Origin: Escherichia coli
GTDB lineage: Bacteria > Pseudomonadota > Gammaproteobacteria > Enterobacterales > Enterobacteriaceae
Assembly (NCBI RefSeq): GCF_003334255.1
Contig: NZ_QOWU01000093.1
Strand: one strand, 5' to 3'
DNA: 7,900 nucleotides
Part shown: positions 1,057-7,823 of the stretch, piece by piece
How positions within the stretch are numbered: the first letter of the stretch is position 1
Layout: every line of letters starts with the position of its first letter
Notes under the pieces: model-generated
Seen by the model: only the letters and a program-made list of their open reading frames with translations
Database searches by the model: none
What the model was told of the DNA's origin: nothing
Made by a program: the position numbers and the translations under genes

Positions 1057-1839
1057 TCATTCGTCTTCTGAATCAGGTGTAATGATCTTTACAGAAGCAT
1101 TCCGGCAGTGCGTAACATAATCTGCCGGTAACGGACGCTCGCTAATCAGAACATCAAATGCAGAGAGCGGTGCGAGGCTGGCAGAGGCTACTTCATCGAA
1201 CAAGGCGTGGCGGGCGAGCAAAATTTTCCTTAGTCCACGGGCCATCGCTTTACGCTTAGTGGCAAGATCTTCGGGATTAAACCAGCTGACGCCAAAGTGA
1301 TCATGTACACCGCTGGCGGAAATAAATATTTTTCGCGGATTGAGAGAGTCTAATGGCGAAGAGTTACTGGCATCGTAAAAAGCATCACTTCTGGCACGAT
1401 ACGTACCACCACAAAGTATTGCTGTCACATTAGGTTTTTCATTCAACGCAACAAAGACACGATGTGAGTAACAGATGCCAGTGAAGGTGATTGCATCCGG
1501 GATCATGCTTATAACGAGCGGTATCTCCTGGCCATTATCAAAGAAGATCAGATCATTTTCATTAACCATTCCGGCGGCCAGAATTGCAATAGGTAAGTCA
1601 TCACGATGATTTCTCGGAACGTCCTGGATTACTGGCATGGATGGTGCGGGTTTATGCACCATTACAATATAGCCACCCAGTAGGGTCAGTGGCAGAGGTT
1701 CATCTTCCTGATGGAGATCGCGACGAATAGTCATTACAGAAACTTCCAGCATTCGTGCCGCGTCTTTCAAATGGATTCTGTCGGTTTTCTTAAGTATTTC
1801 AATCAAACGTCGGATACGCTCTTTTTGCTTCGTTTCCAT
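1057..1839 (-). CDS. deoQ: DeoR-family transcriptional repressor (N-terminal HTH, C-terminal sugar-phosphate-binding domain); likely deoxyribose operon regulator DeoQ
   Basis: N-terminus METKQKERIRRLIEILKKTDRIHLKDAARMLEVSVMTIRRDL closely matches my recollection of E. coli DeoR (METRREERIGQLLQELKRSDKLHLKDAAALLGVSEMTIRRDL). ATG is the complement of 1837-1839, with GGAGAG upstream on the minus strand; the ORF track starts one codon earlier at TTG (1840-1842). Divergent from a kinase-permease operon, as in deoQ/deoKPX. Confidence 0.85.
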   Translation of the reverse strand: METKQKERIRRLIEILKKTDRIHLKDAARMLEVSVMTIRRDLHQEDEPLPLTLLGGYIVMVHKPAPSMPVIQDVPRNHRDDLPIAILAAGMVNENDLIFFDNGQEIPLVISMIPDAITFTGICYSHRVFVALNEKPNVTAILCGGTYRARSDAFYDASNSSPLDSLNPRKIFISASGVHDHFGVSWFNPEDLATKRKAMARGLRKILLARHALFDEVASASLAPLSAFDVLISERPLPADYVTHCRNASVKIITPDSEDE

Positions 1840-1856
1840 CAACTCTCTCCGTAAAA

Positions 1857-1872
1857 TGTTATAAAAATAACA
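1857..1872. promoter_or_regulatory. DeoR-type operator-like palindrome TGTTA-N6-TAACA (TGTTATAAAAATAACA) next to the deoQ start
   Basis: A perfect 8-bp inverted repeat AATGTTAT/ATAACATT lies at 1855-1874. The core has the same half-sites and spacing as the E. coli DeoR operator consensus as I recall it (TGTTAGAATTCTAACA). It sits in the deoQ-deoK divergent intergenic region. Confidence 0.45.
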
Positions 1873-2082
1873 TTATGGCATTAGTAAACATTGTTTTAGT
1901 TACCATACTATACGACCGACCCTTTGAAATGAAAAGGGTATAGCCTGCTGAATTTTCGGTATTAATCCTGTTAGGTTGCTTATGATTAGATAGTGTTGGC
2001 CTGAGTGATAAGACTGGAAGTCTATTAAATAAACATCGGGTTGATGTGCTAATCGCGATCTCAGTCACAAATGATGCAAAAG

Positions 2083-2098
2083 TAACATACCAATGTTA
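2083..2098. promoter_or_regulatory. Second palindrome with the same half-sites in everted order (TAACATACCAATGTTA), about 45 bp upstream of the deoK ATG
   Basis: The inverted repeat TAACAT/ATGTTA is read directly from the sequence. A further TTGTTAT half-site lies at 2110-2116 and an AACATTGTT element at 1887-1895. Candidate DeoQ operator cluster. Confidence 0.35.
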
Positions 2099-2141
2099 TT
2101 TAAATACCATTGTTATGCGAAAGTTTATAAGAGGTAGTGAA

Positions 2142-3077
2142 ATGGACATTGCAGTTATTGGTTCCAATATGGTGGATCTCATTACTTACACTAATCAGAT
2201 GCCTAAAGAAGGAGAAACTCTGGAAGCACCTGCCTTCAAAATCGGATGTGGTGGGAAAGGTGCTAATCAAGCGGTGGCGGCGGCTAAATTGAATTCAAAA
2301 GTCCTGATGCTGACTAAAGTAGGTGATGATATTTTTGCGGATAATACTATTCGTAATCTTGAATCTTGGGGAATTAATACCACTTATGTTGAGAAAGTCC
2401 CCTGTACCAGCAGTGGTGTTGCGCCGATCTTTGTTAATGCTAACTCGAGCAATAGTATTTTAATAATTAAGGGGGCGAATAAATTTCTTTCCCCGGAAGA
2501 TATCGATCGAGCTGCAGAAGATCTGAAAAAATGCAAATTGATCGTTTTACAACTGGAAGTTCAACTGGAAACAGTTTACCACGCGATTGAGTTTGGTAAG
2601 AAAAATGGTATTGAAGTGTTATTAAATCCGGCTCCGGCATTGCGTGAGTTAGATATGTCTTATGCCTGCAAATATGATTTCTTTATCCCGAATGAAACAG
2701 AACTGGAAATATTAACCGGTATGTCGGTTGATACTTATGATCATATTCGTTTGGCCGCACGTTCGTTAGTTGATAAAGGGCTGAACAATATTATTGTTAC
2801 CATGAGCGAAAAAGGCGCATTATGGATGACCCGTGATCAGGAAGTCCATGTTCCTGCATTCAAAGTAAATGCTGTTGATACTAGTGGCGCTGGTGACGCA
2901 TTTATTGGTTGCTTTTCCCATTATTATGTTCAAAGCGGTGATGTTGAAGCCGCTTTGAAAAAAGCCGCTTTGAAAAAAGCCGCTCTCTTTGCCGCTTTCA
3001 GCGTCACAGGGAAAGGTACGCAATCATCTTATCCGAGTATTGAACAATTTAATGAATTTTTAACCTTAAACGAATAA
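2142..3077 (+). CDS. deoK: Ribokinase/PfkB-family sugar kinase, likely deoxyribokinase DeoK (311 aa from this start)
   Basis: Start MDIAVIGSNMVDL with SD AAGAGG at 2129-2134, 7 nt upstream of the ATG at 2142. Ribokinase motifs GCGGKGANQAVAAA and DTSGAGDAFIG are present. The ORF-track start at 2046 has no SD and adds a non-conserved leader, so I prefer 2142. Context: divergent DeoR-like regulator and a downstream FucP-like permease. Confidence 0.85.
   Translation: MDIAVIGSNMVDLITYTNQMPKEGETLEAPAFKIGCGGKGANQAVAAAKLNSKVLMLTKVGDDIFADNTIRNLESWGINTTYVEKVPCTSSGVAPIFVNANSSNSILIIKGANKFLSPEDIDRAAEDLKKCKLIVLQLEVQLETVYHAIEFGKKNGIEVLLNPAPALRELDMSYACKYDFFIPNETELEILTGMSVDTYDHIRLAARSLVDKGLNNIIVTMSEKGALWMTRDQEVHVPAFKVNAVDTSGAGDAFIGCFSHYYVQSGDVEAALKKAALKKAALFAAFSVTGKGTQSSYPSIEQFNEFLTLNE
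2949..2985 (+). repeat. Perfect 15-bp direct tandem duplication (GCCGCTTTGAAAAAA x2, plus a partial third copy GCCGCTC) inside deoK, in frame
   Basis: Read directly: unit 1 is 2949-2963 and unit 2 is 2964-2978, giving AALKK-AALKK-AAL in the protein, C-terminal to the GAGD motif. Confidence 0.95.
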
Positions 3078-3104: not shown

Positions 3105-4421
3105 ATGAACGATAAAAACATCATTCAGATGCCTGATGGGTATCTGAATAAGACCCCCTTGTTCCAGTTTATTTTGTTATCGTGTTTATTCCCGCTATGG
3201 GGATGCGCAGCTGCATTAAATGACATATTAATCACTCAATTCAAAAGTGTATTTTCGCTAAGTAAATTTGCTTCAGCATTGGTGCAGAGCGCATTTTATG
3301 GAGGTTATTTTTTAATTGCAATACCAGCATCCCTTGTGATTAAAAAGACCAGTTATAAGGTGGCAATTTTAATTGGCCTGACGCTGTATATTGGTGGTTG
3401 TACACTTTTTTTCCCTGCCTCGCATATGGCAACCTACACTATGTTCCTTGCGGCTATTTTTGCGATTGCGATTGGCCTGAGCTTCCTTGAAACTGCAGCG
3501 AACACATACAGTTCGATGATTGGTCCAAAAGCCTACGCTACATTGCGGCTCAATATCAGCCAGACCTTTTATCCGATTGGTGCTGCGTCTGGTATTTTAT
3601 TGGGCAAATATCTGGTTTTCTCCGAGGGGGAAAGCCTTGAGAAGCAGATGTCCGGAATGAACGCCGGGCAAATTCACAACTTTAAGGTGCTGATGTTAGA
3701 GAACACCCTTGAACCGTATAAGTATATGATTATGATTCTGGTTGTGGTCATGGTGTTGTTCCTTTTAACCCGCTTCCCAACCTGTAAAGTGGCACAGACA
3801 AGTCACCATAAACGCCCGTCAGCAATGGATACGCTGCGCTATCTGGCTAGAAATCCGCGCTTTCGTCGTGGTATTGTGGCTCAATTCCTTTATGTGGGTA
3901 TGCAGGTCGCAGTATGGTCATTTACCATCCGTCTGGCGCTGGAGTTGGGCGATATCAACGAACGTGATGCTTCAAACTTCATGGTCTACAGCTTTGCCTG
4001 CTTCTTTATTGGCAAGTTTATAGCCAACATCCTTATGACACGTTTTAATCCGGAAAAAGTCCTGATTCTCTATTCCGTTATAGGGGCGCTGTTTCTGGCA
4101 TATGTTGCACTGGCTCCAAGTTTCAGTGCGGTCTATGTCGCCGTCCTGGTAAGTGTTTTGTTTGGCCCTTGCTGGGCGACGATCTATGCAGGAACACTGG
4201 ATACAGTTGATAACCAACATACAGAAATGGCAGGAGCAGTCATTGTTATGGCTATTGTTGGCGCAGCGGTGGTTCCGGCAATTCAGGGATATATTGCAGA
4301 TATGTTCCACTCACTACAGCTTTCATTCCTGGTTTCTATGCTCTGTTTTGTCTATGTCGGTGTCTACTTCTGGCGTGAAAGCAAAGTACGTAATGCACTG
4401 GCTGAAGTCACAGAGTCCTGA
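3105..4421 (+). CDS. deoP: MFS transporter of the L-fucose:H+ symporter (FucP) family; likely deoxyribose permease DeoP (438 aa)
   Basis: Strong resemblance to FucP as I recall it (ALNDILITQF versus NNLNDILLPQF; SAFYGGYFLIAIPASLVIKK versus SAFYFGYFIIPIPAGILMKK), and hydrophobic throughout. SD AAAGG is upstream; the gene starts 27 bp after the deoK stop. Confidence 0.9.
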   Translation: MNDKNIIQMPDGYLNKTPLFQFILLSCLFPLWGCAAALNDILITQFKSVFSLSKFASALVQSAFYGGYFLIAIPASLVIKKTSYKVAILIGLTLYIGGCTLFFPASHMATYTMFLAAIFAIAIGLSFLETAANTYSSMIGPKAYATLRLNISQTFYPIGAASGILLGKYLVFSEGESLEKQMSGMNAGQIHNFKVLMLENTLEPYKYMIMILVVVMVLFLLTRFPTCKVAQTSHHKRPSAMDTLRYLARNPRFRRGIVAQFLYVGMQVAVWSFTIRLALELGDINERDASNFMVYSFACFFIGKFIANILMTRFNPEKVLILYSVIGALFLAYVALAPSFSAVYVAVLVSVLFGPCWATIYAGTLDTVDNQHTEMAGAVIVMAIVGAAVVPAIQGYIADMFHSLQLSFLVSMLCFVYVGVYFWRESKVRNALAEVTES

Positions 4422-4432
4422 GGAGAATCGTT

Positions 4433-4969
4433 ATGAGTACGCGTATTTATTTGTGGCGGGCGCTTTTTGGCGAAAAACCTCGTATCTTGCTGGAAAATAG
4501 TGATTTTACTGTCACGTCTTTTCGCTATGACAGTGGTGTCGAGGGGCTTAAAATTGCAAACAGTCGTGGACATTTAATTATTCTTCCCTGGATGGGGCAG
4601 ATGATTTGGGATGCGCAATTTGATGGACACAGTCTCACCATGTGCAATATGTTTCGCCAGCCTAAACCGGCGACAGAGGTGATAGAAACCTATGGCTGTT
4701 TTGCCTTTCATTCAGGTTTGCTGGCTAATGGCTGCCCATCTGCGGAAGATACTCATCTGCTACACGGTGAAATGGCCTGTGCCGCGATGGATGAAGCATG
4801 GATGGAATTAGAGGGAGATATGTGACGCCTTACCGGGCGTTACGAGTATGTAAAGGGATTCGGGCATCATTATCTGGCTCAGCCAGCAGTGGTCCTTCAC
4901 AAATCCTCTACACTGTTCGATATTAAGATGGCCGTAACCAATCTGGCTTCTGTAGATATGCCACTACAA
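4433..4969 (+). pseudogene. deoX: deoX-like gene (putative aldose-1-epimerase/mutarotase-like), disrupted by an in-frame TGA at 4823-4825 and 3'-truncated by the IS66-family terminus
   Basis: ATG 4433 with SD AGGAG overlaps the deoP stop (translational coupling). The 130-aa ORF ends at TGA, but the same frame stays open for 48 more codons (RLTGRYEYVKGFGHHYLAQPAVVLHKSSTLFDIKMAVTNLASVDMPLQ) up to stops that overlap GTAAGCG at 4970-4975. HLLHGE and VTN...P segments loosely resemble aldose-epimerase-family proteins such as YphB; that family assignment is tentative. Confidence 0.55.
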
Positions 4970-5001
4970 TAGTAAGCGGCTCGCCAGAACCGTCTTAATA
5001 T

Positions 5002-5183: not shown

Positions 5184-5186
5184 GTC

Positions 5187-5222
5187 GAGTCAGCCGGAGA
5201 GAATTTCACTCCCCGGCTGCTC
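5187..5222 (-). ncRNA. Group II intron domain VI with bulged branch-point adenosine (plus 5190, 7 nt from the 3' splice site)
   Basis: Minus strand GAGCAGCCGGGGAG / loop UGAAAUU / CUCUCCGGCUG-A-CUC forms a 14-bp helix with one bulged A, followed by GAC and then the exon. Confidence 0.6.
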
Positions 5223-5225
5223 ACG

Positions 5226-5259
5226 GAACCGTACGTGACACTCTCGCGTCATACGGCTC
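5226..5259 (-). ncRNA. Group II intron domain V (catalytic hairpin)
   Basis: Minus strand GAGCCGUAUGACGCGAGAGUGUCACGUACGGUUC: 34 nt with the AGC triad at positions 2-4, a 2-nt bulge on the 3' strand, a GAGA (GNRA) tetraloop and G-U wobbles at the canonical places. It starts 4 nt after the IEP stop. Confidence 0.88.
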
Positions 5260-5263
5260 TTGA

Positions 5264-6496
5264 TCACTCATTCGATGCACGTAGTAAATACCAGTGGACA
5301 AATAGCTTCGGATACTCCTTCCTTACCAGCGTCAGCTTTCGCTGAGCCCTCCGGTTCGAAAGTCTGTATTTAGACTGCATCCACTTGAGCAGACGTGACT
5401 GCATTGCACTCCACAGTCGATAGTTGAAATTTCTGGACCAGAACTTTCCGTAGTACTCGATCCAGCCTCTCACTATCGCATTGTAGCGCCTCGCAAAATC
5501 CAGCAAACTCTCAGCTGTTGAGCGATGTATACGCCACTTCTTGATTGTTTCTGTTATTTTGCGCATTGCTGCATTTGACGCACCCGGCATGCATTTTCGG
5601 TACAGTTCGCCTTTGAAATTCTTCAGCGTACGCACTTTGAAGTCATATCCGAGAAAGGTGAAACTCGTTGCGACGTTTCTCCTTTTAAACGTGTCAATGT
5701 AGGCGATATTCGTTTTCCCTGCATTCAGGACCAGCCCGACTTCCGAGAAGCGCTCCGATAACCTGTTCTTCAGCCTTGTTGCATCACTCATTCGTGAACA
5801 ATGTACTACAATATCATCAGCGTACCTCTCAAACGGTACCCCCCGATATTCTCTTTCCATCCACAAATCAAATGCATAGTGAAGGAACAAGTTAGCAAGT
5901 AGCGGACTAATGACCCCGCCCTGCGGAGTGCCTCGTGTTCGGGTTATTAATTCTCCATTTTCACAACTCTGCATTGGTGCTTCCATCCAGCGTCGACAGT
6001 ACAGGATGACCCATTTAGGCATCCCGTGGTGTTCCAGTGCTTTGAGCACCAGATCATGTCTCACATGGTCGAAAAACGCACTGATGTCCACTTCCAGTAT
6101 CCAGCTATAACGCCAGCACCGGATGGCACATTGTTTCAGAGCGTCATGAGCTGATTTGCCTGGTCGGTAACCATAAGAATCAGCATGGAAAATCGGGTCA
6201 AGCTTTTCTTCCATAAAAAGTTTTATCGCTCCCTGAGCAATTCGATCGGATACTGTTGGGATCCCCAGAATGCGCTCCTTGCCATTCGGCTTCGGGATCC
6301 GTTTTTCCAGCACAGGTGGCGGAAACCATGTTCCCGAACATAGCCGGTTCCAGATCTTGTATAGATTGCCATCACGTTGCTGGTCGAACATTTTCAAAGT
6401 CTGTCCGTCGCATCCGGGGGCTCCCTTGTTGCGACGCACATCCAGATATGATGCCCAGACCAGTGCTTTTGGTATTTCGAATGATTTTCGTTGCAT
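5264..6496 (-). CDS. Group II intron-encoded reverse transcriptase/maturase (410 aa; RT domains 0-7 plus X/maturase domain, no recognisable C-terminal DNA-binding/endonuclease extension)
   Basis: RT motifs are present: NKGAPGCDG (RT0), GIPTVSDRIAQ, YGYRPGKSAHDAL, TPQGGVISPLLANL and YADD (plus 5813-5824). The maturase motif RGWIEYYG follows. ATG start at 6494-6496; the reading frame is intact. Confidence 0.92.
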   Translation of the reverse strand: MQRKSFEIPKALVWASYLDVRRNKGAPGCDGQTLKMFDQQRDGNLYKIWNRLCSGTWFPPPVLEKRIPKPNGKERILGIPTVSDRIAQGAIKLFMEEKLDPIFHADSYGYRPGKSAHDALKQCAIRCWRYSWILEVDISAFFDHVRHDLVLKALEHHGMPKWVILYCRRWMEAPMQSCENGELITRTRGTPQGGVISPLLANLFLHYAFDLWMEREYRGVPFERYADDIVVHCSRMSDATRLKNRLSERFSEVGLVLNAGKTNIAYIDTFKRRNVATSFTFLGYDFKVRTLKNFKGELYRKCMPGASNAAMRKITETIKKWRIHRSTAESLLDFARRYNAIVRGWIEYYGKFWSRNFNYRLWSAMQSRLLKWMQSKYRLSNRRAQRKLTLVRKEYPKLFVHWYLLRASNE

Positions 6497-7007
6497 CAGT
6501 TACATCATCCCCTTATGGGTTGTGTCTTTTGCAATGAATGTGATCCCCATCCCTTCGCTCCAGACCCATTACAGATCTTTCATCACTACTACGAATGGGT
6601 CCGCCCCTGTTTCCCGATACGTGCCGGAAACAGGTTCTCACGTTCCCTGAGATGGTCTGGCCCGGGATCCTGCTGCCTTAACACCGGATGCCGCGCAGTC
6701 AGTAAGCAGGTGTCTTCTGCGCTTATCAGAGGACGGCTGTACGGCCCCATTTTGACATCATCTAAGATTTCGATGCTTCATCGGACAGTTTACTTTCGTT
6801 CAGCTTCCCGAACCCCACGTGACAGTAGATCTCTGCCTTTTCCCGAGTCGCTCACCACTACATTCCTTAGAATGAAGCAGCACCGGGTCGTTTGGTCAGT
6901 GTTCCTGCAAACCCTGACCGGAGGGCCCACCTCCACCCACCTCAGAGCATGGATAACTTATGCTGCAATTTTCATATTGCCGCTATCAGTTCTCCTTCGT
7001 GACACAC
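6497..7007 (-). ncRNA. Group II intron domains I-III (and the start of IV), 5' ribozyme portion
   Basis: Position and length fit, being about 0.5 kb between the 5' GUGUG and the IEP start. The internal secondary structure was not resolved by eye. Confidence 0.55.
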
Positions 7008-7823
7008 ACAACCAGTTCTTCCGGCCCACGGCCACACCCCGTAAGGCGTTCTCTGCGATGTTGTTGTCGATTTCCACCCAGCCATTGCTGCAGTACACGT
7101 TCAGGGCCTCCCACTGTTTCAGCAGGTATGCGAACGCTTTCGCCGTATCCGAGTGACGCGACAGGGTTTTCATCTTTTCACGCAGCCAGCTTTCCAGGGA
7201 TTTCAGCAGCGGTTTCGTTTTCAACTGACGTTCGGCAAGGCGCTGCTCCGCCGTCATTCCCCTTATCTCTGCCTCGATGGCGTACAGTTCGCCGATCCGT
7301 TTCAGCGCTTCCTCCGTCAGGGCTGACGGGGTGCGAACGTGCACATCGTGGATTTTACGGCGGGCGTGAGCCCAGCAGGCGGCTTCCGTTATCCGGCCAT
7401 CCCGGTACAGCTCGTTGAACCCGGCGTATGCATCCGCCTGCAGTACACCACTGAACCCCGCAAGATGGGTCTGCGGATGGATGCCTTTTCTGTCCGGGCT
7501 GTAAGCGAACCACACCGCCGGCGCCAGCGTTGACCCGGCGTTACGGTCGTCACGAACGTAGGTCCATAACCGCCCGGTCTTCGTTTTCTTATTGCCTGGC
7601 AACAGCACCGGGACAGGCGTGTCATCAGCATGGAGCTTACCGTCAGTCAGCACATAGTCCTGAAGCGCTTCTTCCAGCGGTGACAGTAGCCGGCAGCATG
7701 CATCCACCCAGCCCGACAGCAGTGAACGACTCAGCTCCACACCTTGCCGGCCGTATATTTCTGACTGGCGATACAGCGGGGTGTGCTCTGCATACTTCGA
7801 GGTCAACACGCGGGCCAGCAGCC
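7008..7823 (-). CDS. tnpC: IS66-family transposase TnpC, 5' exon (central region, N-terminally truncated)
   Basis: Translation ...[34 protein letters not shown]...[20 protein letters not shown] matches the IS66 TnpC pattern. ORF-track entry 6958..7809 is this frame reading 16 codons into the intron before a stop. No IS66-like coding continues beyond 7823. Confidence 0.75.

Follow-up and report, generated by a model that had tools for sequence, protein, structure and literature searches.

The closest described counterpart of the locus analysed here is the deoQ-deoK control region of Salmonella, which Christensen et al. reportedly dissected experimentally in 2003 and which has divergent promoters in a 324-bp spacer. 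DeoQ is said to act there on tandem operators in both promoter regions, deoQ and deoK (Kd values of 54 and 2.4 nM), and deoKPX is reportedly repressed by both DeoQ and DeoR and under catabolite repression. A further source, citing the 2003 study, states that Salmonella DeoQ recognises palindromic sequences (PMC2222622).

The other close relative is the DeoR system of E. coli, for which the O1 and O2 palindromes have been quoted and in which distant operators act through DNA loops (PMC5326754). We found both palindromes upstream of deoC in K-12 (O1, TGTTAGAATTCTAACA; O2, TGTTAGAATACTAACA), confirming the DeoR operator consensus that a first-pass annotation of our sequence had given. In K-12 these two operators lie 599 bp apart, and a further one, OE (TGTGAAAATTTTATCA), is located 279 bp upstream of O1.

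The deoK operon enables growth on deoxyribose in pathogenic and some commensal E. coli. Reviews locate it on a pheV pathogenicity island, and it has been linked to how well strains compete in the host (PMC7545054). Strains reported as carriers of deoQKPX include Nissle 1917 and CFT073 (PMC7924626). Our searches show that the region is present in about 1,600 of 5,426 complete E. coli genomes, at 93–99.5% identity. We analysed the copy contained in a 7,900-nucleotide stretch of E. coli DNA, hereafter the window, in which the relevant genes are the following.

1057–1839, minus strand: deoQ, DeoR-family repressor gene, 260 amino acids
2142–3077, plus strand: deoK, ribokinase-family deoxyribokinase, first gene of the operon (TIGR02152 ribokinase, 360 bits)
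3105–4421: FucP-like permease in the deoP position (NCBIfam match)

The first-pass annotation had described a DeoR paralogue in a divergent deoQ-deoK arrangement, and the NCBIfam matches bear this out: a DeoR paralogue facing away from a ribokinase-family kinase, with a FucP-like permease next in line, is the deoQ/deoKP arrangement. The top NCBIfam match of the deoQ product is DeoR (PRK10681), at 230 bits, under the 244-bit cut-off, and the protein shares 38% identity with K-12 DeoR across 253 amino acids. The gene shown as deoK is 87–95% identical to the gene beside deoQ in all 42 related loci described below. With deoQ starting at 1839 (minus strand) and deoK at 2142, the spacer between them is 302 bp long (1840–2141) and has a G+C content of 34%.

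In the window deoX, an aldose-1-epimerase family gene (337 amino acids in ETEC H10407), is a pseudogene at 4433–4971 with a stop at codon 131; its homology ends at 4971, around codon 180, from where IS66-like sequence follows. A group II intron on the minus strand (5184–6934; domain V/VI at 5184–5261, D1–D4 at 6818–6934), with a reverse transcriptase/maturase reading frame at 5264–6496, sits inside an IS66-family element, whose transposase fragment occupies 6958–7809. Near its 3' end (about 2950–3077), deoK carries a 15-bp in-frame insertion relative to ETEC H10407 (311 versus 306 amino acids); the C-terminal region reads KKAALKKAALF in place of VEAALKKAALF and resembles a short duplication.

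The deoQ-deoK spacer contains a cluster of TGTTA/TAACA half-sites that the first-pass annotation proposed as operators of the DeoR paralogue. Our preferred reading, to which we assign a probability of about 0.82, is that these half-sites make up the operators of the divergent deoQ-deoKPX control region and are bound by DeoQ. Judged from sequence, the operator unit would be A-TGTT-N8-AACA-T, a palindrome of 18 bp that shares its geometry with the DeoR operator TGTTA-N6-TAACA. The sites and the associated elements are listed here in order along the spacer.

1856–1873: box Q1, ATGTTATAAAAATAACAT, a perfect palindrome adjoining deoQ, with zero mismatches to ATGTT-N8-AACAT; includes the 16-mer at 1857–1872
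1875–1891: Q2 remnant, ATGGC-N7-AACAT, right half conserved, left half and spacing degenerate in E. coli
1907–1912, minus strand: predicted deoQ -10 hexamer, TATAGT
1930–1935, minus strand: predicted weak deoQ -35 hexamer, TTTTCA, 17 bp from the -10 hexamer and inside a stem-loop
2051–2072: CRP-like site, AATCGCGATCTCAGTCACAAAT, near-invariant in 43 spacers, ending where K1 begins
2071–2088: box K1, ATGATGCAAAAGTAACAT, left half imperfect, right half perfect, one mismatch
2093–2110: box K2, ATGTTATTTAAATACCAT, left half perfect, right half imperfect, one mismatch

All the repeats noted in the first pass were recovered at the positions reported: the 16-mer TGTTATAAAAATAACA at 1857–1872, the everted sequence TAACATACCAATGTTA at 2083–2098, AACATTGTT at 1887–1895 and TTGTTAT at 2110–2116. 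TGTTA or TAACA occurs six times in the spacer against 1.4 expected from its composition (P ~0.003), and only about 0.3% of random spacers of matched composition would be expected to contain either a TGTTA-N6-TAACA unit or the everted counterpart. Extending this pattern by one flanking base per side gives ATGTT-N8-AACAT, which with at most one mismatch is found three times in the 302-bp spacer, against 0.04 expected in composition-matched simulations (P ~5e-5), and only once more in the remaining 7.6 kb of the window. A repeat finder returned the 20-mer AATGTTATAAAAATAACATT around Q1 (1855–1874) with copies at 2070–2089 (75%) and 2092–2111 (85%), 22 bp apart.

We then compared the spacer with its orthologues. 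A scan for DeoQ across 100,044 species genomes yielded 42 loci with a DeoQ identity of 63–85%, from Salmonella, Citrobacter, Raoultella, Klebsiella indica, Leclercia, Trabulsiella, Edwardsiella and other Enterobacterales; deoK is adjacent to and divergent from deoQ in all 42. The spacers range from 185 to 353 bp, and the two from Salmonella (arizonae and diarizonae) are 324 bp long, exactly the length reported in the 2003 work. Phylogenetic footprinting against Salmonella, a check that the first-pass annotation had proposed, was carried out on 43 aligned spacers (the window and its 42 orthologues), and Q1, K1 and K2 are kept in every one of them.

Conservation within the boxes is concentrated in their arms. 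Mean information reaches 1.95 bits in the half-sites, compared with 1.24 in the box centres and 0.76 in the remainder of 1840–2050; arms that are kept around a centre that varies are what a DNA-binding protein acting as a dimer usually leaves. When half-site pairs are counted over all spacers, the inverted N8 geometry dominates, with 141 pairs versus 87 for the everted N4 arrangement. The segment 2051–2141 is nearly invariant throughout, so that on the deoK side only the pattern of variable columns tells the operators apart from the promoter, the CRP site and the 5' leader. Not every half-site of the cluster shares this conservation: the TGTTA at 1969 is invariant within E. coli and shows no conservation in other genera across the 43 aligned spacers.

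Of six E. coli alleles compared, the five chromosomal ones have invariant boxes, and the sixth, on plasmid pEC16, has a decayed K1. This plasmid (pEC16-AU-EG1, NZ_CP194962.1) holds the sole plasmid-borne copy among the approximately 1,600 E. coli matches, with a frameshifted deoQ alongside the degraded K1. A separate group of five loci (L023, L025, L028, L039 and L042) has short spacers of 185–216 bp that are without Q2 or the TATAGT block and retain Q1, the CRP-like site, K1 and K2; with the TATAGT block missing, deoQ must use a different promoter there.

On the deoQ side, a box at the position of Q1 is present in 43/43 spacers, with zero mismatches in 41, its half-sites carry about 2 bits around a variable centre, and it is invariant in the six E. 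coli alleles. The proposal that 1857–1872 is a palindromic operator-type site is therefore upheld by its conservation in all 43 spacers, and the existence of a site on this side fits the suggested autoregulation of deoQ.

Next to Q1, Salmonella and Citrobacter carry a second box (ATGTGTTTCTGAGAACAT) 20 bp further on, with N8 spacing and one to two mismatches, and such a Q2 is present in about 24 of the 43 spacers, 20–21 bp from Q1. The E. coli sequence at this place contains no match to ATGTT-N8-AACAT at two or fewer mismatches. The half-site noted earlier at 1887–1895 stands in part: AACAT (1887–1891) is conserved as the right half of Q2, at about 1.8 bits where the region exists, while the adjoining TTGTT is not conserved. 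A tandem pair, K1 and K2, is seen on the deoK side, and the E. coli deoQ side shows Q1 with a half-conserved N7 Q2; Salmonella has both boxes there.

In the region, the minus-strand pair TATAGT/TTTTCA was the sole promoter-like match. Wherever a spacer retains its -10 segment, ACTATAC, that segment is invariant, and the AAAAG block at 1932–1936 is conserved. From this pair we infer a deoQ start near 1900, which would place Q2 and Q1 at roughly +9 to +44.

The stem-loop of the first-pass annotation exists, its 6-bp version lying at 1920–1938, one base from the 1921–1939 originally given. In its longer form (ACCCTTT-GAAATGA-AAAGGGT, 1919–1939) it has a folding energy of -8.8 kcal/mol and a z-score of -3.3. 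It has no Rfam match and lacks conservation beyond E. coli. We rejected a role as a functional RNA element: the left arm carries about 0.2 bits, the right arm coincides with the conserved AAAAG of the predicted deoQ -35, and the structure is probably upstream of both start sites. We regard it as incidental.

On the deoK side, the CRP-like site matches TGTGA-N6-TCACA, read directly from the sequence, at 3/5 and 5/5 positions, and it fits the catabolite repression of deoKPX reported in Salmonella; the first-pass annotation had not noted this site. K1 occupies a fixed position in all 43 spacers, with variable columns confined to the box centre, and K2 always follows 22 bp after it (43/43), being the 85% copy of the Q1-centred 20-mer. 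A distance of 22 bp is about two helical turns, indicating that K1 and K2 are on one face of the DNA. The everted 16-mer at 2083–2098 is probably no unit of its own: the 20-mer copies and the N8 matches define K1 and K2, so that the everted sequence is the junction between them, formed by the perfect right half of K1 and the perfect left half of K2 in two tandem N8 palindromes.

The window's own sequence gave no plus-strand promoter-like match, and the literature search found no deoK transcription start data. Candidate deoK -10 hexamers lie at 2089–2094, 2100–2105 and 2105–2110, the last of which pairs with RTAACA as -35. All three are inside K1/K2, and K2 overlaps every candidate -10 hexamer or start site; operator and core promoter would therefore overlap whichever is used. 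The first three positions of the K1-K2 spacer (2089–2091) are ACC in the window. The other five E. coli alleles have GCT or GAT there, and most other genera have GAT, which in those genera forms the candidate -10 hexamer GATAAT. Together with the broken deoX, the ACC may mean that the locus is decaying in this strain.

TTGTTAT at 2110–2116 was also considered as an operator half-site. It was rejected on the grounds that it has no partner at N8 spacing, and its conserved part, CATTGTT, is probably promoter or leader sequence. Two further conserved features were observed here: a AAATAAACA block and an (A)ATGAT block at 2021–2045, upstream of the CRP-like site, in most genera, and the deoK leader at 2111–2141 (consensus TTGTTGTGTGATTGTTTCTGAGAGGTAGTAAA), nearly invariant across genera beyond what a ribosome-binding site needs. 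Within this leader, other genera have two copies of ATTGTT at a distance of 11 bp, and E. coli has one.

The identity of the binding protein was approached through the DNA-binding domain. The helix-turn-helix of DeoQ, HLK.AARMLEVSVMTIRRDL, is invariant in the 42 orthologues and matches that of DeoR at 17 of 24 positions, with a single residue difference in the recognition helix VS[V/E]MTIRRDL. This near identity explains the shared TGTT/AACA arms, and it also leads us to expect that DeoR would bind the same boxes. TGTTA/TAACA arms 6 bp apart are both intact in Q1, with one intact in each of K1 and K2, and the boxes agree with the DeoR consensus TGTTAGAA.TTCTAACA at 12/16 (Q1), 10/16 (K1) and 9/16 (K2) positions. 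In turn, the DeoQ box pattern is matched by deo O1 and by deo O2, each time with a single mismatch. The inner GAA/TTC of the DeoR operators is absent from all boxes, whose inner positions vary between genera. DeoQ probably binds the 18-bp box as dimers within a higher oligomer.

These similarities raise the question of whether the boxes are mainly DeoR operators, with DeoQ acting elsewhere or only modulating. Q1, with perfect arms at the DeoR spacing and the highest of the consensus scores, would suit such a role, the functional operator OE is no nearer to the consensus than K1 or K2, and DeoR, too, was reportedly a repressor of the Salmonella operon. We nevertheless consider this unlikely, because every box is missing GAA/TTC, Q1 has TGTTC or TGTTT instead of TGTTA in most genera, the boxes accompany deoQ in 43/43 loci together with an invariant DeoQ helix-turn-helix, and DeoQ itself is said to bind at nanomolar concentrations in Salmonella.

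A different partition of the deoK side, with the everted repeat AACAT-N4-ATGTT (2084–2097) as the unit and the outer imperfect halves as incidental, draws on two perfect inner halves and on an everted pair found in 42–43 of 43 spacers, each of K1 and K2 having one imperfect half. It is more improbable still: the deoQ side has no everted pair at N4 spacing, inverted N8 recurs at Q1, Q2, K1 and K2 as well as at DeoR O1, O2 and OE, the outer halves, ATGAT and ATCAT, hardly vary either, and the N4 spacer varies within E. coli at 2089–2091. That the half-sites arose by chance in an A+T-rich spacer, the deoK-side conservation reflecting promoter, CRP site and leader only, we find scarcely credible. 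The low G+C content and the conservation of the 90 bp before deoK as a block would allow it; on the other hand, the composition-matched simulations speak strongly against it, and Q1 is an island of conservation with a variable centre in an otherwise variable stretch. Our preferred reading thus remains that of DeoQ operators arranged as inverted N8 boxes.

On this reading, DeoQ at K1/K2 would cover the core deoK promoter just after the CRP-like site, and the bound repressor would consequently exclude RNA polymerase. Deoxyribose or a phosphorylated derivative would release DeoQ, upon which CRP-dependent transcription of deoK could start. At Q1 and the Q2 remnant, downstream of the predicted deoQ promoter, DeoQ would exert a weaker autorepression through a block of initiation or early elongation. 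DeoR may reinforce repression at both the deoQ and the deoK sides, and its binding at the boxes would couple the use of deoxyribose to nucleoside catabolism.

The comparison lends no support to looping between the two sets of sites, which the first-pass annotation had raised by analogy with DeoR: the Q1-K1 distance, 215 bp here, spans 81–251 bp across genera and keeps no constant helical phase. In Salmonella, DeoQ reportedly binds the deoQ and deoK regions independently.

A more tentative proposal, which we think rather unlikely, concerns a rewiring of the deoQ side in E. coli. The spacing of Q2 is lost, and the E. coli Q1, with perfect TGTTA/TAACA arms, is more DeoR-like than the Q1 of other genera. 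Autoregulation of deoQ might then be more DeoR- than DeoQ-dependent, and DeoQ could act on deoCABD. If true, the catabolism of deoxyribose and that of deoxynucleosides would be linked in both directions in pathogenic E. coli.

All that we observed agrees with what was reported for the Salmonella orthologue, the spacer length among it. Salmonella enterica deoQ-deoKPX has the same gene order and palindromic boxes at both promoters, in tandem at deoK, and the arizonae and diarizonae spacers carry Q1, Q2, K1 and K2 at homologous positions and a CRP-like site before deoK. The E. coli spacer differs in being 302 rather than 324 bp long, in placing Q1 about 10 bp nearer to the deoQ start codon, in an A/T-only Q1 centre between its perfect arms, and in a Q2 without N8 spacing.

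The DeoR operators O1, O2 and OE of deoCABD are likewise 16-bp palindromes with TGTTA/TAACA arms 6 bp apart, several to a control region and bound by a paralogous repressor with a near-identical recognition helix; they differ in their conserved inner GAA/TTC. Unlike these looping operators, the deoQ-deoK boxes form adjacent pairs 20–22 bp apart; from one set to the other, spacing is not conserved. GlpR, AgaR and UlaR, of the DeoR/GlpR family, offer a further parallel, with several close sites overlapping a CRP-dependent catabolic promoter and a divergent, autoregulated regulator, although their half-site sequences differ from those of the deoQ-deoK boxes.

The earlier reading is therefore partly supported: operators of a DeoR paralogue and autoregulation appear right in outline, and the anatomy is corrected. 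Work on the Salmonella orthologue had already made the system known, and the picture it gave is unchanged. What is added here is a cross-genus box, A-TGTT-N8-AACA-T, a fixed 22-bp tandem at deoK and an E. coli-specific loss of Q2, and the exact operators are useful for annotation, for reporter design and for the question of how DeoQ and DeoR share their targets.
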